Notes: generated by a model from the letters alone, not told the origin. A stretch of DNA of 64,000 nucleotides from Acidimicrobiales bacterium (GCA_050010115.1 JBEKLQ010000003.1:20907-84906), one strand, 5' to 3'. Positions 2,715-47,266 are shown, numbered from the stretch's first letter. Numbers and translations are program-made.

Positions 2715-3731
2715 ATGGCTCCACAGCCCGCACAACCCACACAGCCTGCACGGCGCCCAGCGCCCACAGAGCCCGAGACGATCGCTGGGCCGACCGGTGC
2801 CACTGAGCCATCCGGCGCCTCTGGCAAGCCGGCACGCCGCGGCCGACCCCCGGCATCGGTCGCTGTCGCGTCCGGCACGGTCGCGCAGATGCTTCATTTC
2901 CCCGGGCTGGAGCCCCAGCCGGCCAACCCGCTGGCCGACCCCGCTCGCCGCTCGGACGTCGACGAGTGGGGACGTTCCGAGAGCGCGAGGCGGTTGGCCA
3001 GAAGGCTCGGGGGTTTCTACTACCGGAGGTGGTTCCGGGTGGAGTGGGAAGGACTCGAGAACATCCCCACGTCCGGTGGCGCCCTCCTCGTGGGCAACCA
3101 CGCCGGGGCCATCCCCTCGGACGCGCCCATGATCATGCACGGGGTCGAAGAGGAGCTCGGGCGCCCTGTCTACGGCCTTGCCGACAACTTCTTCCGCACG
3201 GTCCCCCTGGTGGGCACCGAATGGAGTCGCATGGGCGGCGTGGCGGCGCACCCCGACAATGCCCACCGCATACTGCACGACCATCAGCAGTTGGCGCTCG
3301 TGTTCCCCGAGGGGATCAAGGGCCCGAGCAAGCTTGCATCCGAGCGATACCAGTTGCGGCGGTTCGGGCGTGGCGGGTTCGTCGAGACGGCGATGCGAGC
3401 CGGCGTGCCCGTGATCCCGATCGCCGTCGTGGGAGCCGAGGAGTCGATGCCGATCCTGTACCGGCTGCCCGGGATCGCCAAGGTGCTGCGGCTCCCGTAC
3501 CTGCCGCTCACGGCGAACCATCTCGTGTTCGGCCCGGTGCTCGGCACGGTCCTGTACCTGCCGGCGAAGTTTCGATTCCGGGTGCTCCCTCCGGTTCAGT
3601 TCGACGTCGCCCCGAGGCTCCCGAAGTACCCGCGGGGCCGGGTGATGGACGAGGCCGAAGCCATCCGCCAGCAGCTGCAAGAAGCCCTGTACGACATGCT
3701 GGCCCACCGGCGCAGCGTCTGGTTCGGGTGA
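2715..3731 (+). CDS. Lysophospholipid/glycerol-3-phosphate-type acyltransferase (PlsC family, Rv0502-like)
   Basis: 338 aa. It has the block LLVGNHAGAIPSD (HX4D type) and FPEGIKGPSK. The Pro/Ala-rich first ~90 aa make the true start uncertain. It is coupled to the downstream epimerase. Confidence 0.8.
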   Translation: MAPQPAQPTQPARRPAPTEPETIAGPTGATEPSGASGKPARRGRPPASVAVASGTVAQMLHFPGLEPQPANPLADPARRSDVDEWGRSESARRLARRLGGFYYRRWFRVEWEGLENIPTSGGALLVGNHAGAIPSDAPMIMHGVEEELGRPVYGLADNFFRTVPLVGTEWSRMGGVAAHPDNAHRILHDHQQLALVFPEGIKGPSKLASERYQLRRFGRGGFVETAMRAGVPVIPIAVVGAEESMPILYRLPGIAKVLRLPYLPLTANHLVFGPVLGTVLYLPAKFRFRVLPPVQFDVAPRLPKYPRGRVMDEAEAIRQQLQEALYDMLAHRRSVWFG

Positions 3732-4783
3732 TGGGCCGGCGCATACTGCTCACCGGGCTCGACACGTTCTGGGGAGGGCGGGTCGCCGCTGCTCTCGAGC
3801 GTGACCTGGAGATCGAGATGTTGCTCGGTATGGGCACGGGAACGCCATCGGTGGCGCTCGAGCGCACCGAGTACGTCCGGGCCGACAGCAGCTACTCGCT
3901 CCTCGCCCGGATCGTGAAGGCCACGCAGGTCGACACGATCGTGCACACGTTCCTCGTGGTGGACTCGTCGGCGATGTCGGGCAGGGCGTTGCACGAGACG
4001 AACGTCATCGGGACGATGAACCTGTTGGCAGCCGCCGGCGCAGCCGGCTCGTCGGTTCGCCAGGTGATCGTCAAGTCGTCGTCCCTCGTCTACGGTTCGC
4101 ACCCGGCTGATCCGGTCTGGTTCACCGAGGACACGCCCCGATCGCTGCCGCCGCGCTTCCGCCTGGAGCGATCGCTCGCCGAGGTCGAGTCCTACGTGCG
4201 CGACTTCGCCGACGAGAACCCGGGCGTGACCGTGACCGTGCTGCGTTTCGCCAACGTGCTGGGCCCGAACATCAATACGCCGATCAGCCGCAATCTGGCC
4301 CGTGGGGTGATGCCCTGCATCGCCGGGTTCGACCCACTGATGCAGTTCGTCGCCGAGGAAGATGTCGTGCGATGTCTGCAGACGATGGTGTTGCAGTCGA
4401 TCGCCGGCACGTACAACGTGTCCGGCGACGGGCGGATCCCGATCAGCGAGGTCGCCAAGATCGCCGGCGCCTGGAGGTTGCCAATCTCGCCGGTGTTCAC
4501 TCGTCAAGCTGTGGCCCCACTGATCCGGCTGGGGCTGCTCGACCTGCCGGTCGAGCTCGAGCACTTGCTCCGCTATGGGCGGGGGATCGACACGACGAGG
4601 CTGAAGGCCGCTGGTTTCGAGTTCTCGACGAGCTCAGCCGGTGCCATCGAGCGGTACGCCGAGGTGATGCGGCTGCGCCGGGCCATCGGCGACCACACGC
4701 CCGGCTACAAGTACGAAGCGGATGTCGAAGCGTTCTTCAAGCACTCGCCGGCGATCGTGCGCCAGACCGAGGCGGCTCGGTAG
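3731..4783 (+). CDS. NAD-dependent epimerase/dehydratase family protein (Rv0501/GalE2-like partner of the acyltransferase)
   Basis: Internal ATG (codon 256) of track ORF 2966..4783. The ATG shares its A with the upstream TGA (TGATG). The product starts MGRRILLTGLDTFWGGRVAAAL (Rossmann). The 255 upstream codons are an Arg/Pro-rich shadow of the acyltransferase gene. Confidence 0.85.
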   Translation: MGRRILLTGLDTFWGGRVAAALERDLEIEMLLGMGTGTPSVALERTEYVRADSSYSLLARIVKATQVDTIVHTFLVVDSSAMSGRALHETNVIGTMNLLAAAGAAGSSVRQVIVKSSSLVYGSHPADPVWFTEDTPRSLPPRFRLERSLAEVESYVRDFADENPGVTVTVLRFANVLGPNINTPISRNLARGVMPCIAGFDPLMQFVAEEDVVRCLQTMVLQSIAGTYNVSGDGRIPISEVAKIAGAWRLPISPVFTRQAVAPLIRLGLLDLPVELEHLLRYGRGIDTTRLKAAGFEFSTSSAGAIERYAEVMRLRRAIGDHTPGYKYEADVEAFFKHSPAIVRQTEAAR

Positions 4784-4824: not shown

Positions 4825-5454
4825 TCAGAACGTGCCCGGGGTATTCAACCACTGCCGTATGTACCGGTCGCGCCTCTCGGCCCACTCCTCGCCGGTGATC
4901 GCATACCGGACGTGGTCTTCCCATTTGCCGTCGATCTCGAGGTAGCGCAGGGCGATGCCTTCGCCGCGAAGCCAGAGTTTCTGTGCCACTCGACGGCTCG
5001 GGCGGTTCCTCGGGATGATCGACACCTGGACACGGTGCAAGGCCAAGTCCTCGAACGCAAAACGGAACAACAACACGCATGCTTCCGGCACATACCCACG
5101 TCCCGCGTGCAGTTGGTCCATCCAGTAGCCGACGTAGGCGTTCTGAAACGGTCCGCGCTGCACCGACGACAGGTTGACCTCCCCAACGAAACGCGAGGCG
5201 GCGAAGATCCCGAACGCGTAACCCGTCCCGAGCTGCCGCTCACGCTCGCGCATGGAACACCGAGCGGCGAAGCTGGCGCGGTCTTCAGGTGGGTAGGCGG
5301 CGTTGCTCGGACGCGGCTCCCAGGGCAGAAGCCAGTCACGACACCGTGTACGAACTTCGTGCCAGGCTTCGAAGTCCTCCTCCCGCAACGGCCGGAGCTT
5401 GACTCGCCGGCCGGCGAGCTCGGTGGATACGCCCGGGGCGGTCAACTCTGCCAT
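4825..5454 (-). CDS. GNAT N-acetyltransferase (RimJ/RimL-like)
   Basis: 209 aa. It shows the RLRPLREEDFEAWHEVR...LLPWEP pattern and GYWMDQLHAGRGYVPEA, typical of Acetyltransf_3/RimJ-type GNATs. Confidence 0.8.
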   Translation of the reverse strand: MAELTAPGVSTELAGRRVKLRPLREEDFEAWHEVRTRCRDWLLPWEPRPSNAAYPPEDRASFAARCSMRERERQLGTGYAFGIFAASRFVGEVNLSSVQRGPFQNAYVGYWMDQLHAGRGYVPEACVLLFRFAFEDLALHRVQVSIIPRNRPSRRVAQKLWLRGEGIALRYLEIDGKWEDHVRYAITGEEWAERRDRYIRQWLNTPGTF

Positions 5455-5495
5455 GCCATCCCGCGCGACGGGTCAGGACTCGTCACACCCTTATC

Positions 5496-8400
5496 GTGGC
5501 AGATCCAGACCCCCGCCGCCTACGATTGCCACGTGGATCCGCTTGTCCGGTGCAGTGTGCGGGTAGTACTGATGCGATCCCTCTGTCCCCACTCCTCATG
5601 AAGGTGCGCGCAGCGAACACCCCCACGCAACGGCACATGCCGACCGGCACACCGCCCAGCGGCGTGCCCTACGCGGTGCTCGTCGTGGGGATGCATCGCA
5701 GCGGCACATCCGCCGTCACCTCAGCACTCGGCGCCCTGGGTCTCGCCCTGCCTCGTGTCGGCGACCTACTCGGCGCCCGGCACGGCAACGACCGGGGGCA
5801 CTACGAGAGCCTTTCGCTTATGGTCGTCTCCGACGAGATCCTGCAGCGGCTCGGGGGAGGATGGGACGATCCTCCCCACCTTCCGGCTGACCCTGCCGGA
5901 TCCGAGGAGCTGGCGCCGATCGCACGCCGGGCAACGGCCACGTTCGAGGCGTCGTTCGGCACGCCCGAGCGGGCTGTGTGCTGGAAGGACCCGCGGACAG
6001 CGGTCCTGTTGCCGTTCTGGCGCCAGGTGATCGAGCGGCCGGTTGCCGCCGTGCTGTGTATACGCCACCCGCTCGACGTGGCCCGTTCGCTGCAGCGCCG
6101 GGACAGGCTCGCAATCCCGATCGCCTTGGCGCTCTGGGAGCGCTACTACCGCCGTGCTGTCGCAGGCCTCGCCGGGCTCCCGGTCTTCGTCACGACCTTC
6201 GATGACGCGGTCCGCGATCCGGCCGCCTGGCGGTTGCAGATGCAGGCTTGGATCAAGTCGCTCGGGATCGAGGTGGGCGCAAACGGGGCCGGCGAGATGC
6301 CGTTCGATCCGAGCCTCCAGCACTACCGGACGGAACCGGCGGGCGCCCGTGAGACTCACCTGGGCGGCGATCGCGGCGATCGCGGTGGTCGCTCCGGCAG
6401 CGCTCGCTCTGACGCCGGCGCGGCCGGGGCGGGCGGACAGGCCGACGGCGGCGGGGACCGGGAGTCGGGCGTACTCGAGTCGCAGGCGGTGCTCTACCGC
6501 GACCTGCTTGGTCTCGTCGGTGCGCACGACTCGTTCGGCTACGTGCCGACGATTGTCGAGTCACCGTGGACCGACCATGTGCTCGAGCAGCGCCGGGACT
6601 CGCTCCGCATGTGGCGCGCCCTCGACTGGCTCAGCCAGGAGCTGGCGGGTCACCTGCTCGCCGCTCCCGTGGCAGCCTCTCCGCAGGTGGACCCATACCC
6701 GCTGAACGCCACCGAGGATCTCGACGGATACCGCGCCTGGTTGACCGCGCGGGGCGAACCCACCCAGCTGCCGAGGATGTCGGTCTCCGACCTGGTGGCT
6801 GCGGCAGGACCCGAAGGCTCCTCGGGGCAGTCACAGACGGGGCCGGCGAGCTCGGTGCGGCGCGTCCTTGGCACGGTTGCGGCGGTTCCCTCCTCGGCAG
6901 CCAAGCGGGCGTTCCACCCACCCACAGTCGCGACGACCCCGACCACCGCCGGTGAGCCGGCGCTCGCCGCTCCACAGGCCACGGCCTCGCTGTTCAGCGT
7001 CGTCGTGCCCTGTTACCGATCCCCGTTGTGGGCGATCGACCGTGCCGTGGCGTCCGTGCTGGCGCAGGACTACGCGGACTGGGAGCTGTGCCTGTGCGAC
7101 GACGGGTCGGACGATCTGGCACTGTCGGAGCGACTCAGCGAGCTCACCACCGTCGACCCCCGGATCCGGGTCGCGACAAGGCTGCGCAACGGTGGCATCT
7201 CGGCTGCCACCAATTCGGCACTGGAGCTCGCCACTGGAGGTTACGTCGTGTTCCTCGACCACGACGACGAGCTGGCCCCGACCGCGCTCAGCCAGATCGC
7301 AGCGGCGATCGCGGAGCGACCGGACACCGATCTCGTCTACTCCGACGAGGACAAGATCGACAACGACGGCAATCGCCACATGCCGAGCTTCAAGCCGGAC
7401 TGGTCACCGGATCTGCTGCTGTCGAACGCCTACATGTGCCACGTGCTCGTCGTTCGCCGCAGCCTGGTCACCGAGCTCGGCGGCCTCCGCTCCGAGTTCG
7501 ACGGTGCTCAGGACTACGACCTGATGCTGCGGGCAACCGAGCGAACCACCGCCATCGTCCACATCCCGGAGGTCTTGTATCACTGGAGGACCATGGCCGG
7601 ATCCGCCAGCGGTGACGCATCAGCCAAGCCCTGGGCCTTCGAAGCCGGCCGCCTGGCCGTCGCCGACGCCGTGGCGCGCCGCCACATCGACGCCACAGTC
7701 GTCCACCACCCGAAGGTCCCGGGCAGCTACCACGTGATCCGGCGGCCGAAGACCGACGCCCTCGTGAGCGCGATCATCCCGTTCCGCGACGAGCCAGCCC
7801 TCACGGCCGCCTGCTACCGCTCGTTCATCGAGCAGGCCGGCTACGACAACTTCGAGCTGCTGCTGGTCGACAACGACAGCGCCCTCCCCGAGACCCGAGC
7901 GCTGCTGGAGGATTTGGCCCGAGACCATCGCGTGCGCCTGCTGGAGGCGCCGGGCCCCTTCGACTGGGTCGCCATCAACAACGAGGCAGCGCGCAAAGCG
8001 CGAGGCGATCTCCTCCTGTTCCTCAACAACGACGTGGAAGCCCGCTCGGCGGGCTGGCTGTCGGCGATGGTGGCGCAGGCAGAGCGCCCTCAAGTCGGCG
8101 CGGTCGGGGCGCGCCTGCTCTACCCGGACGGGACGATCCAACACGCCGGCGTGGTCGTCGGTGTCGGCTGGGGCGCCACTCATGTGCAGCACAGCCTCCC
8201 GGCCGAGCACCCGGGTTACCTCTCGCTCACCACGGTCACACGGAACTTCTCTGCGGTCACCGGAGCCTGCATGATGACGCGGCGGTCGGTCTTCGAGGAG
8301 GTGGGGGGTTTTGATGGGAATTTACCGATCGCGTTCAACGACATCGACTACTGCCTGCGCCTGCGCGAGCTGGGGTTGCTCATCGTCTACACGCCCTTGG

Positions 8401-8621
8401 CCGAGCTGGTCCATTACGAGTCGAAGAGCCGGGGGCACAGCGATGACGTGAAGGAGGCACCGTTCTTCCGCCGCCGCTGGCGGACGCTGATGCTGTCGGG
8501 GGACCCGTACTACAACAAGAATCTGGGCCGTTTCGACAACAATTGCCGGCTCCCGAGTCAGGAAGAAGAGGCGCAGTGGCAGATATTCCGCTCGATGCTC
8601 AACGAGTCGTCGACGAGCTGA
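5496..8621 (+). CDS. Three-module fusion: sulfotransferase-like domain + two family-2 glycosyltransferase domains
   Basis: 1041 aa. N-terminal region has VVGMHRSGTSAVTSAL (PAPS 5'-phosphosulfate loop type) and IRHPLDVARSL (3'-phosphate motif type). The linker is low-complexity Gly/Asp/Arg. GT2 #1 has FSVVVPCYRS...CLCDDGSDD...FLDHDDEL. GT2 #2 has VSAIIPFRDE...LLVDNDS...FLNNDVEA. The start is uncertain (GTG 5496, ATG 5598 or ATG 5637). Confidence 0.8.
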   Translation: MADPDPRRLRLPRGSACPVQCAGSTDAIPLSPLLMKVRAANTPTQRHMPTGTPPSGVPYAVLVVGMHRSGTSAVTSALGALGLALPRVGDLLGARHGNDRGHYESLSLMVVSDEILQRLGGGWDDPPHLPADPAGSEELAPIARRATATFEASFGTPERAVCWKDPRTAVLLPFWRQVIERPVAAVLCIRHPLDVARSLQRRDRLAIPIALALWERYYRRAVAGLAGLPVFVTTFDDAVRDPAAWRLQMQAWIKSLGIEVGANGAGEMPFDPSLQHYRTEPAGARETHLGGDRGDRGGRSGSARSDAGAAGAGGQADGGGDRESGVLESQAVLYRDLLGLVGAHDSFGYVPTIVESPWTDHVLEQRRDSLRMWRALDWLSQELAGHLLAAPVAASPQVDPYPLNATEDLDGYRAWLTARGEPTQLPRMSVSDLVAAAGPEGSSGQSQTGPASSVRRVLGTVAAVPSSAAKRAFHPPTVATTPTTAGEPALAAPQATASLFSVVVPCYRSPLWAIDRAVASVLAQDYADWELCLCDDGSDDLALSERLSELTTVDPRIRVATRLRNGGISAATNSALELATGGYVVFLDHDDELAPTALSQIAAAIAERPDTDLVYSDEDKIDNDGNRHMPSFKPDWSPDLLLSNAYMCHVLVVRRSLVTELGGLRSEFDGAQDYDLMLRATERTTAIVHIPEVLYHWRTMAGSASGDASAKPWAFEAGRLAVADAVARRHIDATVVHHPKVPGSYHVIRRPKTDALVSAIIPFRDEPALTAACYRSFIEQAGYDNFELLLVDNDSALPETRALLEDLARDHRVRLLEAPGPFDWVAINNEAARKARGDLLLFLNNDVEARSAGWLSAMVAQAERPQVGAVGARLLYPDGTIQHAGVVVGVGWGATHVQHSLPAEHPGYLSLTTVTRNFSAVTGACMMTRRSVFEEVGGFDGNLPIAFNDIDYCLRLRELGLLIVYTPLAELVHYESKSRGHSDDVKEAPFFRRRWRTLMLSGDPYYNKNLGRFDNNCRLPSQEEEAQWQIFRSMLNESSTS

Positions 8622-8647
8622 GGACGTCGCGCCGGGAAGCCGGCACT

Positions 8648-9019
8648 GTGGCACCCAAGTGTTGGGCGCCGTCTGAGTCCTTCGACTCGACGATCCAACA
8701 CCTGGCACGGCCGCCGGTACACCTGAACGACCACCTCGGCTGGATGCACGACAACTGGGACCTGAGGGCCATGCTGGCACCGCCACGCGGACCCGGCGTG
8801 CGCGGGCTGACACACCGGGTCATCCATCGCGTGGTGATGGTGGTGCTCGGCCCGTACCTCGACCGCTTGCAGGACTACCTCGGGGTCAATGTACGGGCGC
8901 TCGACGACGTCGCCAGGCGTGCGGACGACAACTCGGCGGCTCAGCTGCGGCTGGTGGGTGCCGTGCGCGCCGACCTCATCGACTTCGCCCACCACATCGA
9001 CGAGCGCCTGGATGGCTGA
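8648..9019 (+). CDS. Small helical hypothetical protein of the glycan locus
   Basis: Same frame as track ORF 8543..9019. I prefer GTG 8648, which lies after the upstream stop and is preceded by GGGAAG. The C-terminal part HRVIHRVVMVVLGPYLDRLQDYLGVNVRALDDVARR...LIDFAHHIDERLD looks like a real helical protein. Its stop overlaps the next gene's ATG by 8 nt. Confidence 0.5.
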   Translation: MAPKCWAPSESFDSTIQHLARPPVHLNDHLGWMHDNWDLRAMLAPPRGPGVRGLTHRVIHRVVMVVLGPYLDRLQDYLGVNVRALDDVARRADDNSAAQLRLVGAVRADLIDFAHHIDERLDG

Positions 9020-10307
9020 GCAATCCGCCGCCGATCGTGTCGTCGACGTCGTCGGCGTGACGCTTCCTGCCACGATGGCGTCACCGACGATGCCACGCCC
9101 GAAGGTCGTCATCGTGACGGACTCCTGGGGGTCCAATTGGGGTGAGGCGGCAGCTGCCACGCGCCTGGTCGCAGGCGCCCTGGCCCTGCGTGCCACGGTG
9201 ATCATCGTCAGCATCGACGACCGCTCGGCGCTGCGCGAGCGTGACCGGCAGCCCAAGCTCCGGTACGACGGCTTGTTCCCGGTTCACTCGGTCACCGGTC
9301 CGCCCGTGCCGGACGGGGCGGAGCTGCAGGCGGACCTGGTCCGGGCGTCGCTCGCCCGACAGACCGGTGGTGTGATGCCCGAGATCGTGGTGCGAGGCCT
9401 GCTCGACCGAGCTGCCCGGCCGTCGAGCGACGCGATCATCACGACGCTCAGCCTGGAGCCTGACGTGATCGTCCTCGCCGGCAAGGCGACGTTCTGGCTC
9501 GCGATCGCGCTGCCGATCAGCGAGGACCGACCGCGAGTGGTTCTGCTGCCGCTCAGCGGTGACGACCCAGCGCTCTCATCGCCGGCGTTCGGCCCCGTGG
9601 CTGACGTGGTCGAGTCGATCGGCGCGTTCTCAGATGTCGAGTTCCGGCGCATCGCGGGCACCCTCGGGGCCGATTCGACCGCCAAGCTGCGCCGGATGCA
9701 CATCGCCTTCCCGGTCAACCGCTTGGCCGCCACCGCCAGCATGGCGGGGGTGGGGTCATTCGGTCCCAACGTGCTCGTCATCTCGGCGTTCGACGAGGAC
9801 CCGGCCATCGGTCGCTGCCCGCCTCACGACTACCTGCGCCAGGTGTTCGGCGACATCTCCATCGCCGAGGTGAGACGGCACCGGTGGGTCGTGACCGGAG
9901 GTGGGCGGCGTTTTGACATGACGTGGACAGCGACCCGCATGAACATGTGGAGGCTGATGGCTCGGGCGGCGGTGACGATCGACCTCCGGCCGCCGGGCCC
10001 GATCGGCCGAGAGGCCATCGAGTCGCTGCGGTTCGGTACGCCCGTGGTCGTGCCGGAGGGCTCCGTGGCCGCCGAGCACGCGGCCCGTTCCAACGGTGGG
10101 CTCTGGTACCGCAACCAGGGCGAGATGGCCGACTGCGTACGCACGTTGCTCGATGACGACGACCTGCGGGCTCGTCTCGGTGCGAACGGCCAGGAGTGGG
10201 CCGAGCGGTTCCACGGAGACACCCAGACCTTCGTGGAGGACACGATCCGGTTGGTGATCGGTTCGGCGTCGGAGCCTGAGTCACTGGCGGTGACCGGCCA
10301 TCGCTAG
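9012..10307 (+). CDS. Divergent GT-B (GT1/GT4-like) glycosyltransferase
   Basis: Internal ATG (codon 42) of track ORF 8889..10307, forming an ATGGCTGA overlap with the upstream stop. The C-terminal GREAIESLRFGTPVVVPEGSVAAEHAARSNGGLWY...LRARLGANGQEWAERF resembles the GT-B nucleotide-sugar-binding half. Confidence 0.6.
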   Translation: MAEQSAADRVVDVVGVTLPATMASPTMPRPKVVIVTDSWGSNWGEAAAATRLVAGALALRATVIIVSIDDRSALRERDRQPKLRYDGLFPVHSVTGPPVPDGAELQADLVRASLARQTGGVMPEIVVRGLLDRAARPSSDAIITTLSLEPDVIVLAGKATFWLAIALPISEDRPRVVLLPLSGDDPALSSPAFGPVADVVESIGAFSDVEFRRIAGTLGADSTAKLRRMHIAFPVNRLAATASMAGVGSFGPNVLVISAFDEDPAIGRCPPHDYLRQVFGDISIAEVRRHRWVVTGGGRRFDMTWTATRMNMWRLMARAAVTIDLRPPGPIGREAIESLRFGTPVVVPEGSVAAEHAARSNGGLWYRNQGEMADCVRTLLDDDDLRARLGANGQEWAERFHGDTQTFVEDTIRLVIGSASEPESLAVTGHR

Positions 10308-11393: not shown

Positions 11394-11864
11394 TCAGTCG
11401 CGTGACTCGACGGTGAAGTCGGCGCGATCCAGTTCGAGGCGCTCGGCCACCCATGCCCCGACCGGGTCGTCCCCACCGGCGAGGTACCAGGCGAAGTGCG
11501 CGTGCAGGCACTTGACGCCCTTGCGCGTACCGCCCACCCCGCCAGAGGGCCGAGGTCCGGCGTAGCCCACGGCTACCTCCAGGTCACGTTCGGCGGCGTA
11601 CCTCCTATGGGCGGCCGCGAGCAGACCGGCGTCGATGGCCGCCTCGGCCTCCCTCACCCCACCGTCGGCCTCGAGTCGGCTGACAGCCGCCGTCTCGGTC
11701 TTGCCGACCAACCAGAAACGCGTCGGCATCGGAGTCGAGTCGTCGAGGATCGGTGGGTTGCGGATCACGACCGGCGCACCGGCCCGGTCCCGTACCGACA
11801 CCTCGAAGCCCCTCGGCTCCCTCCCCAACAACGCCGCGACCACATCCCGGTCGCTGACGGTCAC
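11394..11864 (-). CDS. DUF501 domain protein (conserved partner of ftsB/ppx in Actinomycetota)
   Basis: Contains PMPTRFWLVGK...GGTRKGVKCLHAHFAWYLAGG. The start at GTG 11864 forms a GTGA overlap with the coxG-like stop. Confidence 0.8.
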   Translation of the reverse strand: MTVSDRDVVAALLGREPRGFEVSVRDRAGAPVVIRNPPILDDSTPMPTRFWLVGKTETAAVSRLEADGGVREAEAAIDAGLLAAAHRRYAAERDLEVAVGYAGPRPSGGVGGTRKGVKCLHAHFAWYLAGGDDPVGAWVAERLELDRADFTVESRD

Positions 11865-12628
11865 TTCTTCCTGCGGCGCAGTGCGTAGACGACGATCCTC
11901 GCCAGGAACAGCACACCGGCGACGCTCGCATACGGCCACAACCGCTTCGCTAGCGACGGCCCGGCGATGCCGACGAGGTTGACCGGCTCAGCCGGCACCG
12001 ACTGGATCTGCCGCACAGCCGGCCGTGCGGACTCGGCGGCGGTCGACTCGGCACCGCTCTCGACGGCAGTCGGCGCAACGCCGAGGCGCTCAGCGCCAGG
12101 CGTCGCAGCCGCAGCGTCGGCAGCCGCCGCCTCGAGCTCGGCAGTGGCGGCGTCAGCGGGCACCGCCTCACCTTCAGCCTCGCTCGGACCCAGCACCATG
12201 ATCTCCAGGTTGTGCACGAACTGGCCGAGCAGCTTCCCCGACACGTCGGCGAGGACACCCCGCCCGAACTGCGCCACCTTGCCGGTGATGGCGAGGTCGG
12301 TCGAGACCATCACTTTCGTGCCCACCCCAGATGGCTCCATCGTCGCAATGATGGTGGCCGAGGCGTTGCCTTGCCCGCGAGTCTCCCGGCCCTCGGCCTT
12401 CAACACGGCTCGGTGGGTAGCCTCGTCCAGTTCCTCGAAGCGCGCGGCACCCTTGTAGGACGCCGTGATCGGGCCCACCTTCACCTTGACGATCCCGCGG
12501 TACTCGTCCCCTTCGATCTCCTTCAACTCAGCGCCCGGAAGGCACGGGGCGATCCGTTCCACGTCAGTCAGGATCGCCCAGGCCTGCTCCACAGGAACGG
12601 CGACTTCGAAGACGTCGGTCAATTCCAT
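11861..12628 (-). CDS. coxG: CoxG-like SRPBCC protein with Ala-rich linker and C-terminal membrane anchor
   Basis: Starts at ATG 12628 (codon 113 of the track ORF) with MELTDVFEVAVPVEQAWAILTDVERIAPCLPGAELKEIEGDEYRG... The tail is LWPYASVAGVLFLARIVVYALRRRKK. Confidence 0.85.
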   Translation of the reverse strand: MELTDVFEVAVPVEQAWAILTDVERIAPCLPGAELKEIEGDEYRGIVKVKVGPITASYKGAARFEELDEATHRAVLKAEGRETRGQGNASATIIATMEPSGVGTKVMVSTDLAITGKVAQFGRGVLADVSGKLLGQFVHNLEIMVLGPSEAEGEAVPADAATAELEAAAADAAAATPGAERLGVAPTAVESGAESTAAESARPAVRQIQSVPAEPVNLVGIAGPSLAKRLWPYASVAGVLFLARIVVYALRRRKK

Positions 12629-13176
12629 CGGCGGAGGTCCTCTCGGGTGTCGATGTCGGTTGCTATACCCTCGCAGGCTACTTCGACCACAAGTTCCGGT
12701 CGTCTCGACATGAGCGAGCGGGCGCCGGAATCGCCGCTGATCGGCAGCAGGGTCCACACCTGGGCATCCAGCCGGACGGGGTGCCCACGGTGCCCACGGT
12801 AGGTCGCCACGACGATCGGGCCGCCAGGCGCGTCGGCCACACGGCGCCAGGCTTCGGCGGTCAGTCCCGGCATGTCGGCCAGCCCGATGACCGCGGACGC
12901 GTGTCCCTGCCGCTGGCACCAGTCGAGGGCCACGCCCAGCGAGGTGGCCTGGCCCAGCTCCCACTGATGGTTGTGCAGCAGCGTGACCCCTTCGGGTACC
13001 ACGTCGCCGAGATCAGCGGCCCCGGTGACGACGACGACCTCGTCGAGTCCCGCCTCGAGCGCCGGCCCGATCGCCCAAGCCACGAGTGGCCGGCCGTGAG
13101 CGGGCGCCAGGAGCTTGGAGCCACCCTGGAACCGTGAGCCCGCCCCGGCAGCCAGTATCACGCCAGCAATGGACAT
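12619..13176 (-). CDS. mocA: MobA/MocA-like molybdenum cofactor cytidylyltransferase
   Basis: 185 aa. Starts MSIAGVILAAGAGSRFQGGSKLL, the NTP-transferase signature. Location in a cox/xdh-type cluster supports the call. Confidence 0.8.
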   Translation of the reverse strand: MSIAGVILAAGAGSRFQGGSKLLAPAHGRPLVAWAIGPALEAGLDEVVVVTGAADLGDVVPEGVTLLHNHQWELGQATSLGVALDWCQRQGHASAVIGLADMPGLTAEAWRRVADAPGGPIVVATYRGHRGHPVRLDAQVWTLLPISGDSGARSLMSRRPELVVEVACEGIATDIDTREDLRRWN

Positions 13177-13197
13177 CGCGTCGAGCGTACTGAGCGC

Positions 13198-14118
13198 TCA
13201 ACGCGAATGAATCGGGCCGGCCCCCGCTCGCAGCGAAGGCACTGGTGTGGCCGTGCGGCAGGCGATGATCTCGGCGCAGATGGCGATCGCCGTCTCCTCG
13301 GGCGTACGAGCGCCGATGGCGAGTCCGATCGGGCTCATCAGGCGCGTCGACAACGCCTCGGGGTCGGCGCCCGCGTCGAGCAAGCGCCGCCACCGCTCCT
13401 CGTGGGTCCGGCGCGACCCCATGGCGCCGAGGTACCCAACGCGGGTCTGCATTGCCGAGAGGACCGCCGGTACGTCGAACTTGGCGTCGTGCGTCAACAC
13501 GCAGACGGCGTCTCTGGGCCCCAGATCCTCCCCGACCCGGTTCAAGTAGCGGTCAGGCCACTCGACGATCACCTCGTGCGCCATAGGAAACCGCTCCACC
13601 GTCGCAAAGACAGCCCTAGCGTCGCACACGACGACGTGGTAGCCGAGCAGGCGGCCCACCGACGCGAGGGCGGCGGTGAAGTCCACCGCTCCGAAGATGA
13701 TCAGCCGGGGAGGCGGCGCGAACACCTCGATGAACACCTCGACCGACGTCTGGCGTGCCTCGCCGCGCTTGCCATAGTGACGGCTGACGGTCAGCCCGCT
13801 CTCGACAGCAGCCAACACGTCACGGGTCACCACACGGTCGAGATCCGGGTTGCCGAGACTGCCGACGATCTCGGGAGCGGAGTCCGTCGGGACGACCAGC
13901 AGCTTGGCGCCGAGCGAGACGGCAGGACTCTCCTCTGCCGCCTCCCCCGCTTCGGGCTCGAGCCCGGTGACCGTCGCCAGCGCTGCCGGCCGCGTCTGAC
14001 GGAGCGCCGCCCGCAGTGCCTCGAAGACGGGCCGCTGGCTTCCCGAACCCGCCGATGTGGCTGGCCCTGCTGGCAGTCCCGCCCCTGCCTCAGGCCCTGT
14101 GGCCGGTCCCGTGGTCAC
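13198..14118 (-). CDS. xdhC: XdhC/CoxI-family maturation factor, C-terminal part (second XdhC_CoxI-like segment + Rossmann domain)
   Basis: Contains LIIFGAVDFTAALASVGRLLGYHVVVCDARAVFAT...THDAKFD...YLGAMGSRRTHEER. I start it at GTG 14118, which overlaps the TGA of the upstream half (GTGA). The track's longer N-terminus to 14271 overlaps that half out of frame. Confidence 0.75.
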   Translation of the reverse strand: MTTGPATGPEAGAGLPAGPATSAGSGSQRPVFEALRAALRQTRPAALATVTGLEPEAGEAAEESPAVSLGAKLLVVPTDSAPEIVGSLGNPDLDRVVTRDVLAAVESGLTVSRHYGKRGEARQTSVEVFIEVFAPPPRLIIFGAVDFTAALASVGRLLGYHVVVCDARAVFATVERFPMAHEVIVEWPDRYLNRVGEDLGPRDAVCVLTHDAKFDVPAVLSAMQTRVGYLGAMGSRRTHEERWRRLLDAGADPEALSTRLMSPIGLAIGARTPEETAIAICAEIIACRTATPVPSLRAGAGPIHSR

Positions 14119-14429
14119 CAGTCGATCGGCTCCACCAGCACCCGCAAGGTCCCACCGCAGGTCAGCCCGACGGCGAACGCCTCGTCGTCGGAATAGCCGA
14201 ACGTGCACACACGGGCCGTGCCGGACTCGAGCACCGACAGCGCCTCGGTCACGACCGCCCCTTCCACACACCCGCCGGAGATCGACCCGGCCACTTCACC
14301 GGCATCGCTGACCTCCATCGTCGCTCCAGGGTCCCGCGGGCTCGATCCCTCCACGGCCACGACCCGGGCGATGGCCACCCGCTTTCCCTCGGCCAACCAT
14401 CCGTCGACCTGGTCGAGCACTTCTTTCAT
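14115..14429 (-). CDS. xdhC: XdhC/CoxI-family maturation factor, N-terminal domain as a separate ORF
   Basis: 104 aa: MKEVLDQVDGWLAEGKRVAIARVVAVEGSSPRDPGATMEV...SISGGCVEGAV...DDEAFAVGLTCGGTLRVLVEPIDW. This is normally the first domain of a single XdhC polypeptide. Confidence 0.75.
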   Translation of the reverse strand: MKEVLDQVDGWLAEGKRVAIARVVAVEGSSPRDPGATMEVSDAGEVAGSISGGCVEGAVVTEALSVLESGTARVCTFGYSDDEAFAVGLTCGGTLRVLVEPIDW

Positions 14430-14451
14430 GTGGGCCTACCTACTCGAACAC

Positions 14452-15282
14452 TTAGGCCAGCGCCTGGGTGAGCGCCCGACGGACCAGCACGCGCGACAGG
14501 TGCCGCCGGAACGACTCGGAGGCGTTCGCATCGCCAACCACATCCAGCCCGGAGTCAGCCAGCGAGGCAGCATCAGCAGCGGGAGCACCCTCTGACACCG
14601 CTGCCTCCACGGCCGACGCCCGAACCGGCACTGAGCCGATGTTGATCAGGCTCACCCCGACCGAGGGCCCCCCATTGAGCTTCACCGCTACGGCGCCAAC
14701 GATGGCCCAGTCCTGGGCACGCTTGGTGAGCTTCTCGAAGCCCCAACCGCTTGCACCCATCTTCGGGAGCCGGATCTCGGTCAGAATCTCGTCCGGCGCG
14801 AGCGCCGTCTCGAGGAACCCGAGATGGAACTTGGACGCCTCGACCGCTCGCGTCTCGCCCGGGCCGCTCATCATGAGCGTCCCGCCGAGCGCCAAGACGA
14901 GGGCAGGAAGGTCGGAGGCGGCGTCGCCGTGGGCAATCGATCCACCGATCGTGCCCCGGTGGCGCACCTGCGGATCGCCGATCTGCCCGGCGACGTGAGC
15001 GAGCACCGGGAGCTCGGCAGCCACCAGGGGCGAACGCGACAGCTCGTCGTGGGAGGTGAGCGCCCCGATGGCGAGGTGGTCGCCGCCGTCACGGACGTAG
15101 GACAGCTCCGAGAGCCGGCCGATGTCGACAAGCACGTCCGGAGTGGCCAAGCGCAGCTTCATCAACGGCAGCAGCGAGTGCCCGCCGGCGAGCAGCTTGG
15201 CGGAATCGCCGTGCTCGTTCAATAACTCGAGGGCGTGAGCGAAGGACTCGGCTCGCACGTACTCGAAAGCGGATGGGATCAC
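14452..15282 (-). CDS. coxM: Xanthine-dehydrogenase-family FAD-binding medium subunit (CoxM-like)
   Basis: Starts at GTG 15282 (GTGA overlap with the coxS stop). Sequence runs [21 protein letters not shown]...LLAGGHSLLPLMKLR... Confidence 0.9.
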   Translation of the reverse strand: MIPSAFEYVRAESFAHALELLNEHGDSAKLLAGGHSLLPLMKLRLATPDVLVDIGRLSELSYVRDGGDHLAIGALTSHDELSRSPLVAAELPVLAHVAGQIGDPQVRHRGTIGGSIAHGDAASDLPALVLALGGTLMMSGPGETRAVEASKFHLGFLETALAPDEILTEIRLPKMGASGWGFEKLTKRAQDWAIVGAVAVKLNGGPSVGVSLINIGSVPVRASAVEAAVSEGAPAADAASLADSGLDVVGDANASESFRRHLSRVLVRRALTQALA

Positions 15283-15761
15283 GACCGCAGCTCCGGCGCC
15301 CGGGCAGCAGCCATGGCCGCCTCGATGATGTTGTGGTACCCGGTGCATCGGCAGAGGTTGCCCTCGAGACCCAACCGCACGTCGGCCTCTGTGAGCTCTT
15401 CGCCATCGCCGCGCTCTGCGAGGAGCGACGTGATGGCCATCACCATGCCGGGCGTGCAGTAGCCGCACTGGAGACCGTGGTGCTCCCGGAACGCTCGCTG
15501 CACCGGGTGCATCGTCCCGTCCGCCGCGGCCATCCCTTCGATGGTCGTCACCTCGGCACCGTCGGCCTGGGCCGCCAGCACGGTGCAGGACTTCACGGAC
15601 CGGCCGTCGAGCAGCACGGTGCAGGCGCCGCAGGACGTGGTGTCGCAGCCGACGTTCGTCCCCTTCAGCCCGGCCGCGTCCCGTATGTAGTGGACGAGCA
15701 GCGTCCGCGCCTCGACGTCGTGGGACGTCTCGGTGCCGTTGAGTGTGATCGTGACCCGCAT
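15279..15761 (-). CDS. coxS: (2Fe-2S)-binding small subunit (CoxS-like)
   Basis: Starts at ATG 15761 with MRVTITLNG. Carries the cysteine clusters [11 protein letters not shown] and CGYCTPG...CRCTGY. Confidence 0.92.
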
Positions 15762-15763
15762 GG

Positions 15764-18067
15764 TCAAGCTGCTCCTTTCTCCTCGTGAGCCGGTGAACCG
15801 GCGCCGCCCGCCGCCTGGATCGCCGTCCACACGCGCTCGGGCGTCGTCGGCATGTCGATGTGCCGCACACCGAGGTGGGCGACCGCATCCACGACGGCGT
15901 TGTGCACCGCTGGCGTCGAGCCGATCGTGCCGGACTCGCCGATGCCTTTGGCACCGAGAGGGTTTCTCGGGGTGGGTGTCTCGGTGAACGCCGTCTCGAA
16001 CGCCGGCAGCTCGGCAGCCGACACCATCGAGTAGTCGGCGAGGTTGGCGGTGAGCGGGTTGCCGGCGGCGTCGTAAGTGAACTCCTCCATCAACGCCTGC
16101 GCCGCCCCCTGGGCGATCCCGCCGTGGACCTGCCCCTCGGCCAGGAGCGGGTTGAGGATGCGACCGGCGTCGTCGACGGCGATGTGCCGCACCAGTTTGA
16201 CCGAACCGGTCTCGGTGTCGACCTCCACGACGGCGACGTGCGTCCCGAACGGGAACGTCGCCCCGCCCGAGGACATGTCCACCTCGGCCATGAGCGGCGA
16301 GCCGTCACGGTCGAGCGACGCCTGCGCCAGCTCGCCCCACCCCCGGGCGATGGCCGGCGTGCCGGCGACGTGAAAGGCGCCGCTCGGGCGGTCGAGCACG
16401 ATGTCGGCTGCGTCGGCCTCGAACAGGTCAGCCGCCAGCGACTTGGCTTTGTCGACGACTTCGAGCGCCGCCTGGTTGACGGCCGAGCCGCCGACTTGCA
16501 GGGAGCGGGACCCGAACGTGCCGACGCCCCGGGGCACGATGTCGGTGTCGCCGTGGATGACCTCGATGTCGTCGATTCCGATGCCGAGCTGGTCGGCGAC
16601 GATCATCGACCAGGCGGTGTGGTGGCCCTGGCCGTGGGGCGACGTGCCCGTGCGGACGATCGCCCGCCCGCTCGGGAGGATCTCGACGGCGCCGTACTCG
16701 CCTTCGGGCACGCCGTTGGTGATCTCGACGTACGACGAGATCCCGATGCCGATCTGGTGCGAATCGCCGGCTGCCCGCCGAGCCTGTTGCTCCGACCGCA
16801 GCTCCTCGTACCCGGCCATCTCGAGCGCCAGGTCAAACGCTGTCAGGTACTCGCCGCAGTCGTACTCCGTGCCCGTCGGCGTCGTGTAGGGAAAGGCGTC
16901 GGCGGCGATGAGGTTCCTCCGGCGCAGCTCGGCCGGGCTCATGCCGATCTCCGCCGCGTAGCAGTCCATCGCCCGCTCGAGGGCGGCGGTGGCCTCTGGG
17001 CGGCCGGCTCCCCGGTAGGCGACGGTGGGAACCGTGTTCGTGACGACCGAGTTGCTCGAGCACTCGCCGCGGGGGATCGTGTAGACGCCGGTCGCCATCG
17101 TGCGGGTCATGAACGGCAGCACGGCGCCGATCGCCGGGTAGGCGCCGGCGTCCTGCAGGACGTCGATCCGGTACGCGAGGATGCGGCCGTCGCGGGTGCC
17201 GCCGATCTCGACGTCCTGGACCTGCGCCCGGCCGTGGCCGAGACCGACCATGGACTCGGACCGGGTCTCGACCCAGCGCACCGGCCGGCCGAGCGCACGA
17301 GCCGCCCAGGCGACGACGAGGTCCTCGGCGTACACGCTCGCCTTGGCGCCGAAACCACCCCCGACGTCGGGAGCGATGACGTGGATCTGCTCCGGGTCGA
17401 CACCGAGCGACGTGGCGAGCGTGTCCCGCACGCCGTGGGCGGCCTGGGTCGACGAGTAGAACAACAACCGCCCATCCTCCTCGATGATGGCGGCGGCGGC
17501 ACGACCCTCCATCGGGCACGGGGCGACCCGCTGGTTCAGGATTCGCTGGGAGACGACGACGTCGCAGCCGTCGAACAGCGTCTCGTCACGCCCGAACTGC
17601 AACGAGAAGCAGTTGTTCGTCCCCACTTCGGGGAACAGCAGCGTCTCGTCCTGCAGCGCCTCTTCGGGGTCCACGACGACCGGCAGCGCCTCGTAGTCGA
17701 CGATCACGAATTCGGCGGCATCGGCGGCGGCGGACGGCGATTCGGCCACGATCGCCACGACCGGCTCGCCCACGTAGCGCACCACACCGCTCGCAAGCAC
17801 GGGCCGGGTCATGGCCTGGTTCAAGAACGCCATGCCGGGTGGCATCGGAGCGAGACCGAGATCGTCGTGGGAGTAAACGGCGACCACACCAGGTGCTGCC
17901 CTCGCCTCGTCGAGGTCGATGTTCTCGATCCTGCCGTGCGCCACCGTCGACCGGACGAAGCCGAGGCTCAGCGCACCCGGTAGATCGAGGTCGCCGACAT
18001 AGGTGCCACCCGTCGTGAGGAGCTTGGGGTCCTCGCGACGGAGCACGCGATTGCCGAGGATACTCAT
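15764..18067 (-). CDS. coxL: Molybdopterin-binding large subunit, form-II CoxL-like (xanthine dehydrogenase family)
   Basis: 767 aa, starting [20 protein letters not shown]... The active-site loop reads [11 protein letters not shown] (the AYRGAGR type) rather than the VAYRCSFR type of bona fide CO dehydrogenases. Confidence 0.9.
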
Positions 18068-18127
18068 AGGCGCCGACCCTAACCGCGAGCGGCCGGATCG
18101 CGCCCGAGTTGCTTCAGCTCATTCGCC

Positions 18128-46991: not shown

Positions 46992-47028
46992 GAGCCTCCT
47001 CCTTCGAGAGCCGGGAGATGTCCCGCAC

Positions 47029-47082
47029 CCGCCCGACCGACCGACCGACCGCCCGACCGACCTACCGACCGACCGCCCGACC
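47029..47082. repeat. Imperfect (GACC)n / (GGTC)n microsatellite, about 12 units with 12-bp super-periodicity, 40-90 nt upstream of paaA GTG 46991
   Basis: Read directly: CCCGCCCGACCGACCGACCGACCGCCCGACCGACCTACCGACCGACCGCCCGACC. In the extended track ORF it would read (VGRS)4. Confidence 0.9.
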
Positions 47083-47266
47083 ATTCGGTCGGCAAATCTA
47101 CCACCGAGGACCCCGACCAGCGCCGGCCCATCGCTCGTCACTTTGGTCTCGCAGGGCTGGCCAAGCCAGTTGTGGCGATCGCCACCTCGACAGCGACTGC
47201 GAGCAGGCTGGCGAGGTCGTAACAGGCCCGTCCTGCCGGCCGTCCGCCGGCCTTGGCGACGGCCGT

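Follow-up and report, generated by a model that had tools for sequence, protein, structure and literature searches.

An Acidimicrobiales protein that joins a sulfotransferase-fold domain to a GT2-GT2 cassette, a candidate polymerase in which a sulfotransferase would take the terminator's place

The target gene lies in a window of 64 kb, which is the whole stretch of Acidimicrobiales DNA analysed here. Its reading frame runs unbroken from 5496 to 8621 on the plus strand, with a third-position GC of 0.84, as is usual for real genes in this window of 69% GC. The most upstream start codon is a GTG at 5496 that would give 1041 aa, and an ATG at 5598 gives 1007 aa. The ATG is almost certainly the true start, because its 1007-aa product is identical to a database protein (P0001), the N-terminus aligns from Met1 with a 75% identical orthologue (P0002), and a non-coding motif that orthologous loci share lies within the supposed extra codons. 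A preliminary description of the locus had presented a single polypeptide of 1041 residues; the uninterrupted frame holds and the length is corrected. The upstream motif, located between the target and a divergently transcribed GNAT gene, is a candidate promoter or operator. It has no Rfam match, and an E. coli-type promoter scan did not call it. No hydrophobic transmembrane window was found in the 1007-aa protein. The coordinates of these and the following features are collected in Table 1.

Table 1. Features of the target locus, in nucleotide positions of the 64-kb window (aa, residues of the protein encoded by each gene).
Feature	Position	Strand	Evidence
Acyltransferase	2715-3731		Pfam survey of the window
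Epimerase	3731-4783		Pfam survey of the window
Divergent GNAT (Acetyltransf_3, RimJ-like)	4825..5454	-	Pfam; NCBIfam RimJ 89.8 bits, below the cutoff of 190
Candidate promoter/operator, motif TATCGTGGCAGATCC...TACGAT	5492..5526	+	Both blocks position-conserved across orthologous loci
Target gene; soluble product of 1007 aa, ordered sulfotransferase, linker, GT2, GT2 (three catalytic modules)	5598..8621	+	ORF; P0001 identity; P0002 alignment; upstream motif
Sulfotransferase-fold domain, aa 25-232	5670..6293	+	PF13469 23.8 bits; family profile; AF2 model; Foldseek
5'-phosphosulfate-binding (PSB) loop GMHRSGTS, aa 31-38, including R34	5688..5711	+	37-sequence family alignment; TPST profile alignment
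GNDRGHYES motif, aa 63-71, with N64 and E70	5784..5810	+	N and E invariant in 37-sequence family alignment
KDPR motif, aa 130-133	5985..5996	+	K and P invariant in 37-sequence family alignment
3'-phosphate-binding (3'-PB) motif RHPLDVARS, aa 156-164 (R156, S164)	6063..6089	+	R and S invariant in 37-sequence family alignment
Gly/Asp/Arg-rich low-complexity linker, aa 246-287	6333..6458	+	pLDDT < 50 in full-length AF2 model
Conserved helical middle region, aa 290-405	6465..6812	+	Conserved columns; helices with pLDDT 82-93
GT2 module 1, aa 466-715; DXDD D554-H-D556-D557 (nt 7257-7268)	6993..7742	+	PF00535; K4CP A2; ORF6-O7 alignment
GT2 module 2, aa 723-1002; NXD N810-N-D812 (nt 8025-8033)	7764..8603	+	PF13641 and PF00535; ORF6-O7 alignment
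Small conserved partner protein, 147 aa	8576..9019	+	Orthologues in same position in all clade loci
Divergent GT-B (GT4-like) partner, 431 aa	9012..10307	+	Weak Pfam; PDB profile matches; clade co-conservation

Two further genes follow the target in overlapping reading frames. The first overlaps its 3' end by 46 nt and encodes a small protein that has no match in Pfam or NCBIfam and no transmembrane window. The second overlaps the small-protein gene by 8 nt and encodes a GT-B-like protein; weak C-terminal matches to PF00534 and PF13524 occur in all four of its orthologues that were tested, and its profile matches GT4 enzymes in the PDB at 8.5e-4. This three-gene unit, with the target first, is kept in all clade loci, and only these two proteins are consistently co-conserved with the target. 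The preliminary description had read the neighbouring genes as an envelope-glycoconjugate locus. The genes it listed are indeed present, but the acyltransferase and epimerase accompany the target in its nearest subclade only and are missing from most clade loci, the GNAT (upstream of the target in all clade loci) is RimJ-like with no shown role in a glycan system, and the unit is embedded in a run of housekeeping genes (ppx, DUF501, DivIC, eno, mazG, mfd, pth, prs and glmU). A search of the 64-kb window and of the clade loci, up to 10 kb from each orthologue, returned no genes for an ABC transporter, rml enzymes (RmlC and RmlD included), APS kinase or an initiating transferase.

Both profile searches and structure prediction indicate that the N-terminal domain of the target is a genuine sulfotransferase fold with intact PAPS-binding-type motifs, which bears out what had been proposed from the motifs. 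The outcome named in the preliminary description as its refutation, a missing fold or missing PAPS-binding residues, was not observed. Its score against PF13469 (Sulfotransfer_3) lies below the curated gathering cutoff of 27 bits, both for the whole protein (19.2 bits) and for the isolated domain (23.2-23.8 bits, spanning positions 2-202 of the 216 in the profile). Among 37 family relatives, 32 match PF13469 at E <= 1e-3 (best 6.4e-13), and the 37-member family profile retrieves only sulfotransferases from the PDB, with TPST at 1e-7. The AF2 (AlphaFold) model of the domain has a pLDDT of 91.6, and the top 13 Foldseek matches in the PDB, which are all those with E <= 1e-3, are sulfotransferases with moderate TMq values (0.49-0.58).

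Across the 37 sequences of the family, the residues that never vary fall in the 5'-PSB loop (M, H, R, S, G and S), at the KDP lysine and in the 3'-PB motif. In the family profile, GMHRSGTS aligns with G(M/V)PRSGTT of TPST, KDPR with NKDPF, and RHPLDVARS with RDGRxxxxS. The catalytic residues of TPST2 include Arg78, Glu99 and Lys158 (PMC10951654). K130, aligned to the lysine of NKDPF, is a candidate catalytic Lys, and E70 is a candidate catalytic base, its equivalence to Glu99 being by inference and not by alignment. Where orthologues no longer have the GNDRGHYES segment that contains E70, through deletion or replacement, the PSB loop is gone as well. Fold, PSB loop (G-x-x-R-S-G-T-(S/T)), KDP lysine and 3'-PB R...S are shared with TPST1/2, Stf0, Stf9 and the CurM ST, whereas identity to Sulfotransfer_3/TPST-type enzymes is only 12-18%. 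A database search found the fusion to be widespread: the module belongs to a family of ~15,000 representatives of 50%-identity clusters (E <= 1e-30), many of which are multi-domain glycosyltransferase proteins. The module is typically fused to or near glycosyltransferases, and six loci encode the sulfotransferase as an ORF of its own, close to a GT2-GT2 cassette. Such fusions are thus not rare but common in sequence databases. Most members of this apparently uncharacterised subfamily are annotated just as "glycosyltransferase" or "hypothetical".

The sulfotransferase domain is followed, as the preliminary description had it, by a low-complexity linker and a helical middle region. The linker is predicted to be disordered and is an insertion found only in the target, missing in all 25 aligned orthologues including P0002. 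The middle region has no Pfam match; it contains a helix (aa 323-353) and the motifs ESPWT and YPLNATED..Y..WL..RGEP. A search of the target for an extended coiled coil (ruler) returned only this 31-residue helix, flanked by disordered linkers, and no PG-free helical stretch was found in the protein. In longer sulfotransferase-bearing relatives, coiled-coil repeats separate the sulfotransferase from the GT2-GT2 cassette, an order (terminator, coiled coil, polymerase) that resembles that of terminator-ruler-polymerase proteins.

The C-terminal half matches PF00535 in two stretches (E 4e-45), and the two complete GT2 domains with DXD-type motifs that had been described (DHDD, aa 554-557; NND, aa 810-812) are confirmed. 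Module 2 also has a weak match to the rhamnosyltransferase family TIGR01556. A BLASTP comparison of residues 455-1007 with the GT2 modules of ORF6-O7 from Klebsiella pneumoniae, whose sequence was taken from an SI figure of Kelly et al. 2024 (J Biol Chem, PMC11231755), shows 41% identity over 522 aa (E 3e-130). Module 1 aligns to ORF6-O7 766-1140, with D554/D556/D557 corresponding to D975/D977/D978, and module 2 to 1141-1414, with N810/D812 corresponding to N1230/D1232. The DXDD and NXD motifs, which lie 255 residues apart in the target versus 256 in ORF6-O7, are invariant or nearly so in 26 orthologues. In ORF6-O7, the three aspartates are needed to add two alpha-1,2-Rha and N1230/D1232 to add alpha-1,3-Rha; in vitro, the modules add two alpha-1,2-Rha and one alpha-1,3-Rha, and together with a stand-alone glycosyltransferase they polymerise the O7 glycan, with an N-terminal terminator in the same protein (PMC11231755). 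This homology suggests that the GT2 pair of the target polymerises rather than merely transferring sugars in sequence, and that the donor is most likely dTDP-L-rhamnose, with donor specificity not guaranteed at 41% identity. Since the cassette resembles a characterised polymerising dual rhamnosyltransferase this closely, a polymer is likelier than the sulfated di- or oligosaccharide or sulfoglycolipid first suggested, and the product is no longer unpredictable from known pathways.

In the target, which follows a known terminator-plus-polymerase design, the place of the terminator is taken by a sulfotransferase. Like the target, ORF6-O7 combines an N-terminal chain-modifying module with two C-terminal GT2 modules in one polypeptide and requires a separate partner glycosyltransferase, which is a ribofuranosyltransferase for ORF6-O7 (PMC11231755) and, in our comparison, would be the GT-B-like protein for the target. 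Unlike the target, it has a CBM, a long coiled-coil ruler and, for its methylphosphate cap, a methyltransferase-kinase; its gene shares an rfb locus with wzm/wzt and rml (PMC11231755), whereas the target has no transporter or rml genes nearby. WsaE, which makes the S-layer glycan of the Gram-positive Geobacillus stearothermophilus NRS 2004/3a, is soluble and trifunctional and, according to its published description, has the same layout, its two rhamnosyltransferase domains being preceded by a capping methyltransferase and a separate enzyme, WsaF, acting with it (PMC2943079). No ruler has been demonstrated for WsaE, and the target likewise has no extended coiled coil. WsaE differs in its cap (a 2-O-methyl from SAM) and in its locus, where wsaE overlaps wzm/wzt in one cluster with rmlABCD (PMC2943079). 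In WbdD (E. coli O9a) and WbbB (K. pneumoniae O12) systems, non-reducing-end modification stops polymerisation and the modifier is physically coupled to the polymerase; these systems differ from the target in their coiled-coil rulers, phosphate-methyl or beta-Kdo caps, and GT4 or GT102/GT103 polymerases. The best structural matches of the full-length model are K4CP chondroitin polymerase and PmHS2 heparosan synthase, which likewise hold two GT domains in a single chain. These are far more distant than ORF6-O7 (~12-16% identity, rmsd 16-22 A, different domain orientation) and carry no sulfotransferase. The structural alignment covers both GT domains, but only module 1 matches K4CP by sequence (A2 domain, E 8e-21); a close relationship of both domains and a common arrangement with these bifunctional glycosaminoglycan polymerases were not seen.

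On balance, we consider the target to be probably a cytoplasmic, soluble, three-module glycan-assembly enzyme, in which a polymerase pair is joined to a sulfotransferase that acts on the glycan made by the same protein, likely as a cap. The GT2 modules would extend a lipid-linked glycan from nucleotide-sugar donors, and the GT-B-like enzyme encoded two genes downstream probably acts together with them. WsaF is reportedly of GT-B fold as well. The N-terminal slot, occupied in characterised relatives by a methyltransferase or methyltransferase-kinase, would here hold a PAPS-dependent sulfotransferase, and we infer that the glycan is its sulfate acceptor. The most probable site of sulfation would be the non-reducing end, where a cap would stop chain growth, and the alternative is sulfation along the chain; the role as a cap is the least certain step of this proposal. 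The searchable literature yielded no bacterial glycan with a sulfate cap and nothing specific on the cell-wall polymers of Acidimicrobiales.

Among the 66 clade orthologues, ~41 (target included) keep all 12 probed catalytic and PAPS-binding residues, and the rest lost residues together or lost the domain. The ~25 with degenerate or missing residues still keep the three-gene unit, and several retain a recognisable domain (70-150 bits). Because this sizeable minority lacks intact sulfotransferase residues or the domain, sulfation is an optional accessory and not essential to the conserved function; the joint retention or joint loss of the 12 residues is what one would expect if the enzyme module worked but could be dispensed with. 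Outside the clade, cassette homologues of other phyla mostly lie beside ABC-transporter genes (within 10 kb, ABC ATPase in 36 loci, RmlC in 12 and APS kinase in three: L024, L051 and L085). At L085, a relative with the same order of sulfotransferase and GT2-GT2 directly follows ABC-2 permease, ABC ATPase and Poly_export genes and adjoins APS kinase, RmlC, RmlD and ManC genes, and several extra sulfotransferase and methyltransferase genes are present. A wider proposal is that a sulfate cap ends the chains of a rhamnose-containing cell-envelope glycan, in a glycan system that is core-genome-embedded and clade-wide in Acidimicrobiales, that the sulfotransferase of sister lineages decayed to a non-catalytic scaffold or was lost, and that the sulfotransferase-terminator module would operate in thousands of uncharacterised bacterial polysaccharide loci; we offer this as a tentative possibility that may well prove wrong.

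The same polymerase might instead carry a sulfotransferase that decorates internal residues, so that the product is sulfated but not sulfate-capped. The lack of a coiled-coil ruler in the target would fit such an enzyme, as would the extra modifying genes at L085, which suggest heavy decoration there, and the literature describes bacterial capsular and extracellular polysaccharides that are sulfated by dedicated sulfotransferases. Nevertheless, all characterised proteins built in this way (ORF6-O7, WsaE and WbbB) have a terminator as the module fused N-terminally, and the longer relatives place a coiled coil between sulfotransferase and polymerase, which leaves internal decoration a rather unlikely, if serious, alternative. 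That the protein is no polymerase, and adds two or three sugars and a sulfate to yield a sulfated oligosaccharide or sulfoglycolipid as originally suggested, we regard as quite improbable. GT2 modules are capable of non-processive action, there is an acyltransferase gene upstream, and transporter and initiating genes were not found nearby; yet the cassette closely resembles a module shown to polymerise, its homologues in other phyla mostly adjoin transporter genes, and most clade loci lack the acyltransferase and epimerase.

Other doubts concern the N-terminal domain itself. It might be catalytically inert in the target, serving only as a scaffold or substrate-binding module, since in some lineages, where the domain remains recognisable despite its degenerate residues, the fold has a non-catalytic role, and the target falls under the PF13469 cutoff. 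Retention of all 12 probed positions in the target and ~40 orthologues would be unexpected without selection for catalysis, and we give an inert domain little credence. Least credible of all is an enzyme of P-loop kinase type, or a sulfotransferase whose substrate is not a glycan but, for example, a protein tyrosine or a small molecule. P-loop kinases do occur among the weaker Foldseek matches (E ~3e-3), and the best sequence-profile matches are tyrosylprotein sulfotransferases, but GMHRSGTS has no Walker-A lysine, the PAPS-user-specific R...S motif is present, all 13 significant structural matches are sulfotransferases, and in polysaccharide loci the module turns up repeatedly fused to glycosyltransferases or beside their genes.

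The proposed sulfotransferase-polymerase enzyme will be interesting but unsurprising to a specialist, because the design principle is established and such fusions abound in databases. If the sulfotransferase is active on its own protein's product, sulfate would join the short list of end-capping or modifying chemistries in physical linkage with cytoplasmic glycan polymerases, of which methyl, methylphosphate and Kdo have been demonstrated, and the subfamily of ~15,000 cluster representatives would gain a first functional handle. A sulfate cap, if true, would be a terminator chemistry not yet experimentally demonstrated for cytoplasmically polymerised bacterial glycans. The intact and decayed sulfotransferase domains of otherwise syntenic orthologues form a natural experiment that allows direct comparison. 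Acidimicrobiales are an abundant but poorly cultured actinobacterial lineage, and the findings point to an envelope glycan system that is conserved in these bacteria and had not been described before.

The open reading frame of the preliminary description, 5496-8621 (+), is free of interruptions, and its third-position GC (0.84) is that of genuine genes in the window (69% G+C). Its length of 1041 aa, however, had been counted from the most upstream GTG. Because the product from the ATG at 5598 (1007 aa) is identical to a database protein (P0001), a 75%-identical orthologue (P0002) aligns with its N-terminus from Met1, and a conserved non-coding motif occupies 5492-5526, this ATG is almost certainly the true start; GTG 5496 was rejected on the motif and on orthologues starting at the ATG. 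Within the motif, TACGAT stands at 18-nt spacing from TGGCAG, and both blocks, TATCGTGGCAGATCC and TACGAT, keep their position even where the orthologous proteins diverge to ~45% identity. A riboswitch or other known RNA was rejected, with no Rfam match at E ≤ 1, as was a canonical sigma-70 promoter, none being called in a scan with an E. coli-type promoter model. The motif may be a promoter or operator of actinobacterial type.

Features of the window and of the 1007-aa protein (residues in 1007-aa numbering; domain boundaries from the full-length AlphaFold2 model)
Feature	Window position	Residues	Remark
Intergenic motif, TATCGTGGCAGATCC ... TACGAT	5492-5526		between divergent GNAT gene and 1007-aa gene; position-conserved across orthologous loci
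1007-aa gene	5598-8621 (+)	1-1007	
Compact alpha/beta domain		25-232	
GMHRSGTS		31-38	motif
RHPLDVARS		156-164	motif
Gly/Asp/Arg-rich low-complexity stretch	6333-6458	246-287	predicted disordered
Conserved helical region		290-405	includes 31-residue helix, 323-353
Second disordered linker		406-460	
First GT-A domain		466-715	
DHDD		554-557	motif
Second GT-A domain		723-1002	
NND		810-812	motif
147-aa gene	8576-9019		directly after 1007-aa gene, 46-nt overlap
431-aa gene	9012-10307		directly after 147-aa gene, 8-nt overlap
Molybdenum hydroxylase genes	11861-18118 (-)		CoxG, XdhC, CO-dehydrogenase/xanthine-dehydrogenase-like; between ppx and eno
850-aa ORF	27521-30073 (-)		signal-peptide-like N-terminus; at least 6 Big_3_5 bacterial Ig-like repeats; Ala/Ser/Thr/Gly-rich
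Phenylacetate-catabolism-type genes	42947-48214 (-)		two PaaA/PaaC-family proteins, Fer2 + FAD/NAD-binding reductase, enoyl-CoA hydratase
TauE/SafE-family permease gene	56346-57146 (-)		sulfite/sulfonate exporter family

Apart from the start codon, the preliminary description is confirmed in what it observed, and its interpretation is supported in part. Its sulfotransferase-like (ST) domain and two GT2 domains are real, and each of the four motifs it quoted is found in the sequence. Pfam assigns both GT2 domains (PF00535, E 4e-45), and the full-length model has a mean pLDDT of 75.5. The Gly/Asp/Arg-rich stretch is an insertion absent from all 25 aligned orthologues, P0002 included. No transmembrane segment is predicted in the protein. 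Most orthologues keep a C-terminal tail, SML(N/G/S)ESSTS (aa 1003-1007, window 8604-8618), behind a conserved helix (aa 988-1002); the tail may serve in interactions or in membrane association.

For the N-terminal domain, the full-length match to Sulfotransfer_3 (PF13469) stays below the cutoff of 27 bits: the whole protein scores 19.2 bits, the isolated domain 23.2-23.8. Searching the PDB by phmmer with the N-terminal 257 aa as a single sequence returned noise only, and therefore a family profile was needed. This was derived from an alignment of 37 domain sequences (A2), 32 of which match PF13469 individually and in all of which M32, H33, R34, S35, G36, S38, G48, N64, E70, K130, P132, R156 and S164 are invariant. 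Against the PDB, the profile retrieved sulfotransferases only: tick TPST (1e-7), TPST1 (1.5e-5), then aryl sulfotransferases, Stf9 and the CurM/OLS sulfotransferase. It aligns GMHRSGTS with the 5'-PSB loop of TPST, KDPR with NKDPF, and R..P..VA.S with the 3'-PB motif. Catalysis by TPST2 requires Arg78, Glu99 and Lys158 (PMC10951654); R34 and K130 align with the catalytic Arg and Lys, and E70, placed without direct alignment, plausibly corresponds to the Glu. The isolated domain is modelled with a pLDDT of 91.6 and a pTM of 0.89, and all 13 Foldseek matches to it in the PDB at E ≤ 1e-3 are sulfotransferases, P-loop kinases ranking only lower. Profile, model and motifs together support both a sulfotransferase fold and the presence of PAPS-binding residues, either of whose absence would have contradicted the preliminary description.

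In a large protein database, the ST module turns up at 30-45% identity in multi-domain glycosyltransferase proteins of many different architectures, at either terminus or in between. Searched exhaustively with the profile, 1.84 billion cluster representatives gave 35,010 matches at E ≤ 1e-3 (14,951 at E ≤ 1e-30) in proteins of ~250 to ~1,800 aa. In a crude coiled-coil scan, about half of the stand-alone ST-domain proteins showed a helical stretch of 35 aa or longer. No characterised member of this family was found. Fusion of the module to glycosyltransferases is thus a common modular theme and not a rarity, a point that the preliminary description had left to a search.

When one genome per species was scanned, at least 594 loci encoding relatives came to light. 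Their GT2-GT2 pair (the cassette, aa 465-980) shows 40-50% identity in Cyanobacteria, Clostridia, Planctomycetota, Nitrospirae, Patescibacteria, Verrucomicrobia, Xanthomonadales and a Thaumarchaeote. Its nearest known system is ORF6 of Klebsiella pneumoniae O7, which carries two C-terminal GT2 modules, the first with DXDD and the second with NXD, that in vitro add two alpha-1,2-Rha and one alpha-1,3-Rha from dTDP-Rha and, with a stand-alone glycosyltransferase, polymerise the O7 glycan; a coiled coil separates this polymerase from an N-terminal methyltransferase-kinase terminator (PMC11231755). With the module sequences taken from the supplement of that paper, BLASTP of aa 455-1007 gave 41% identity over 522 aa (E 3e-130) and brought both motifs into register. 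The product, held by the preliminary description to be unpredictable from known pathways, is therefore more predictable in class. WsaE of Geobacillus stearothermophilus, in which two rhamnosyltransferase domains come after a capping 2-O-methyltransferase and which has a separate partner enzyme, WsaF (PMC2943079), is alike in domain order: a modifying enzyme, then two glycosyltransferase domains. In structure, the full-length model comes closest to K4CP and PmHS2, single-chain polymerases with two domains, but at 12-16% identity and with their domains oriented differently these stand much farther off than ORF6-O7; a K4CP-like glycosaminoglycan polymerase as closest relative was rejected (~15% versus 41%). 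Between ST module and cassette, longer ST-bearing relatives carry coiled-coil repeats as well as a beta-rich domain, matching the ORF6-O7 order of terminator, CBM, coiled coil and polymerase. The cassette often occurs in two or three tandem paralogous genes per locus (L020, L033, L038, L039, L057, L068, L074, L076 and others; e.g. Blautia, Prevotella and cyanobacteria), which suggests that the polymerase module was duplicated repeatedly to build more complex repeat units.

The gene itself lies in a housekeeping block, with an esterase and NlpC/P60 upstream and ppx, Mo-hydroxylase genes, eno, mazG, a PpiC-type rotamase, mfd, pth, L25, prs and glmU downstream. Homologues of ABC ATPase, RmlC/D and APS kinase are absent from the 64-kb window. 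In every Acidimicrobiales-type locus examined (the clade), the order is NlpC/P60, divergent GNAT, cassette protein, small protein and a protein of ~410-430 aa, down to ~45% protein identity. The 431-aa protein is predicted to be a divergent GT-B; a profile of its orthologues gave weak generic GT4 matches only, WsaF not among them, and the 147-aa protein has no family match. An acyltransferase and an epimerase adjoin this three-gene unit only in the nearest subclade, and the GNAT is RimJ-like, which argues against all three as obligatory parts of the system. Elsewhere in the block, the region between ppx and eno holds DUF501 and DivIC in orthologous loci; the molybdenum hydroxylase set is present in locus L002 and not in L003, which makes it a variable insertion within a block that is otherwise conserved. 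The 850-aa ORF, missed by a simple GC3 gene filter, may encode a secreted or surface protein. ARAGORN found no tRNA genes in the window (1-64000).

Outside the clade, an ABC ATPase lies within 10 kb of the cassette in 36 loci (often immediately upstream), RmlC in 12 and APS kinase in 3; the cassette there usually belongs to transporter-dependent polysaccharide loci. In the clearest case, L085, a protein with ST-to-GT2-GT2 order directly follows ABC-2 permease, ABC ATPase and Poly_export genes and adjoins APS kinase, RmlC, RmlD and ManC, with more sulfotransferases and methyltransferases beyond. ST module and cassette share one ORF in the clade and sporadically in Cyanobacteria, Nitrospirae and Proteobacteria, and the module is a separate nearby ORF in 6 further loci. 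In Agrilutibacter, etfAB adjoins the cassette protein, and a Sulfotransfer_3 protein, a 1748-aa multi-glycosyltransferase/methyltransferase protein and several methyltransferases are encoded close by, a position that may resemble the O-antigen locus of Xanthomonadales. The wb(salmo) cluster of Aeromonas salmonicida, for an ABC-transporter-dependent O-antigen, has a conserved 216-aa ST-domain ORF between wzt and wbbB, and the O-antigen structure has no reported sulfate (PMC4483657); a terminal sulfate cap present in sub-stoichiometric amounts would account for that.

Twelve catalytic and PAPS-binding positions were checked in 66 partly redundant clade sequences. All 12 are kept in ~41, the 1007-aa protein included; ~14 have a recognisable ST domain (70-150 bits) with residues replaced, and ~11 have little or none of it left. 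The three-gene unit is kept in all clade sequences probed, and unit and synteny persist where the ST is decayed or missing (proteins P0025, P0030, P0035, P0037, P0039 and P0042; loci L008-L016, L025, L030 and L062). Because the 12 residues are co-retained in many lineages and co-lost in others, this pattern argues for an ST module that would be catalytically active where intact, and for sulfation as a dispensable accessory of a conserved glycan system.

The best-supported reading is an enzyme of the WsaE/ORF6-O7 type. Its dual GT2 polymerase module would probably use dTDP-Rha and probably work with the downstream GT-B, and the PAPS-dependent sulfotransferase, coupled to that module, would modify the nascent glycan. 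If the analogy with all characterised proteins built this way holds, it would cap the non-reducing end and end chain growth. The cap is the least secure step, since the protein is without a coiled-coil ruler, no transporter lies nearby, and the literature searched yielded neither a sulfotransferase as chain terminator nor a sulfate-capped glycan; an ST-type terminator may have been predicted earlier. The closest published case is the Aeromonas salmonicida ORF, itself unexplained (PMC4483657). In-chain sulfation of the glycan, which departs from the preferred scheme at this step and from the analogy behind it, is the likeliest of four alternatives.

A non-polymerising enzyme, yielding the sulfated oligosaccharide or glycolipid that the preliminary description had envisaged, comes second; it has against it the kinship of the cassette with polymerase modules. 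An inert scaffold ranks third: the module is lost in part of the clade with the unit intact, and the joint retention of its 12 residues speaks for activity. Least likely is an ST domain that acts on a different substrate or as a kinase; P-loop kinases do appear among the lower Foldseek matches, and a P-loop kinase identity was rejected on that ranking and on the invariant A2 motifs.

The design of the polymerase is known, and the 1007-aa protein differs by a sulfotransferase in the terminator/modifier slot. Intact and decayed ST modules among syntenic orthologues provide a natural experiment for comparing enzyme modules.
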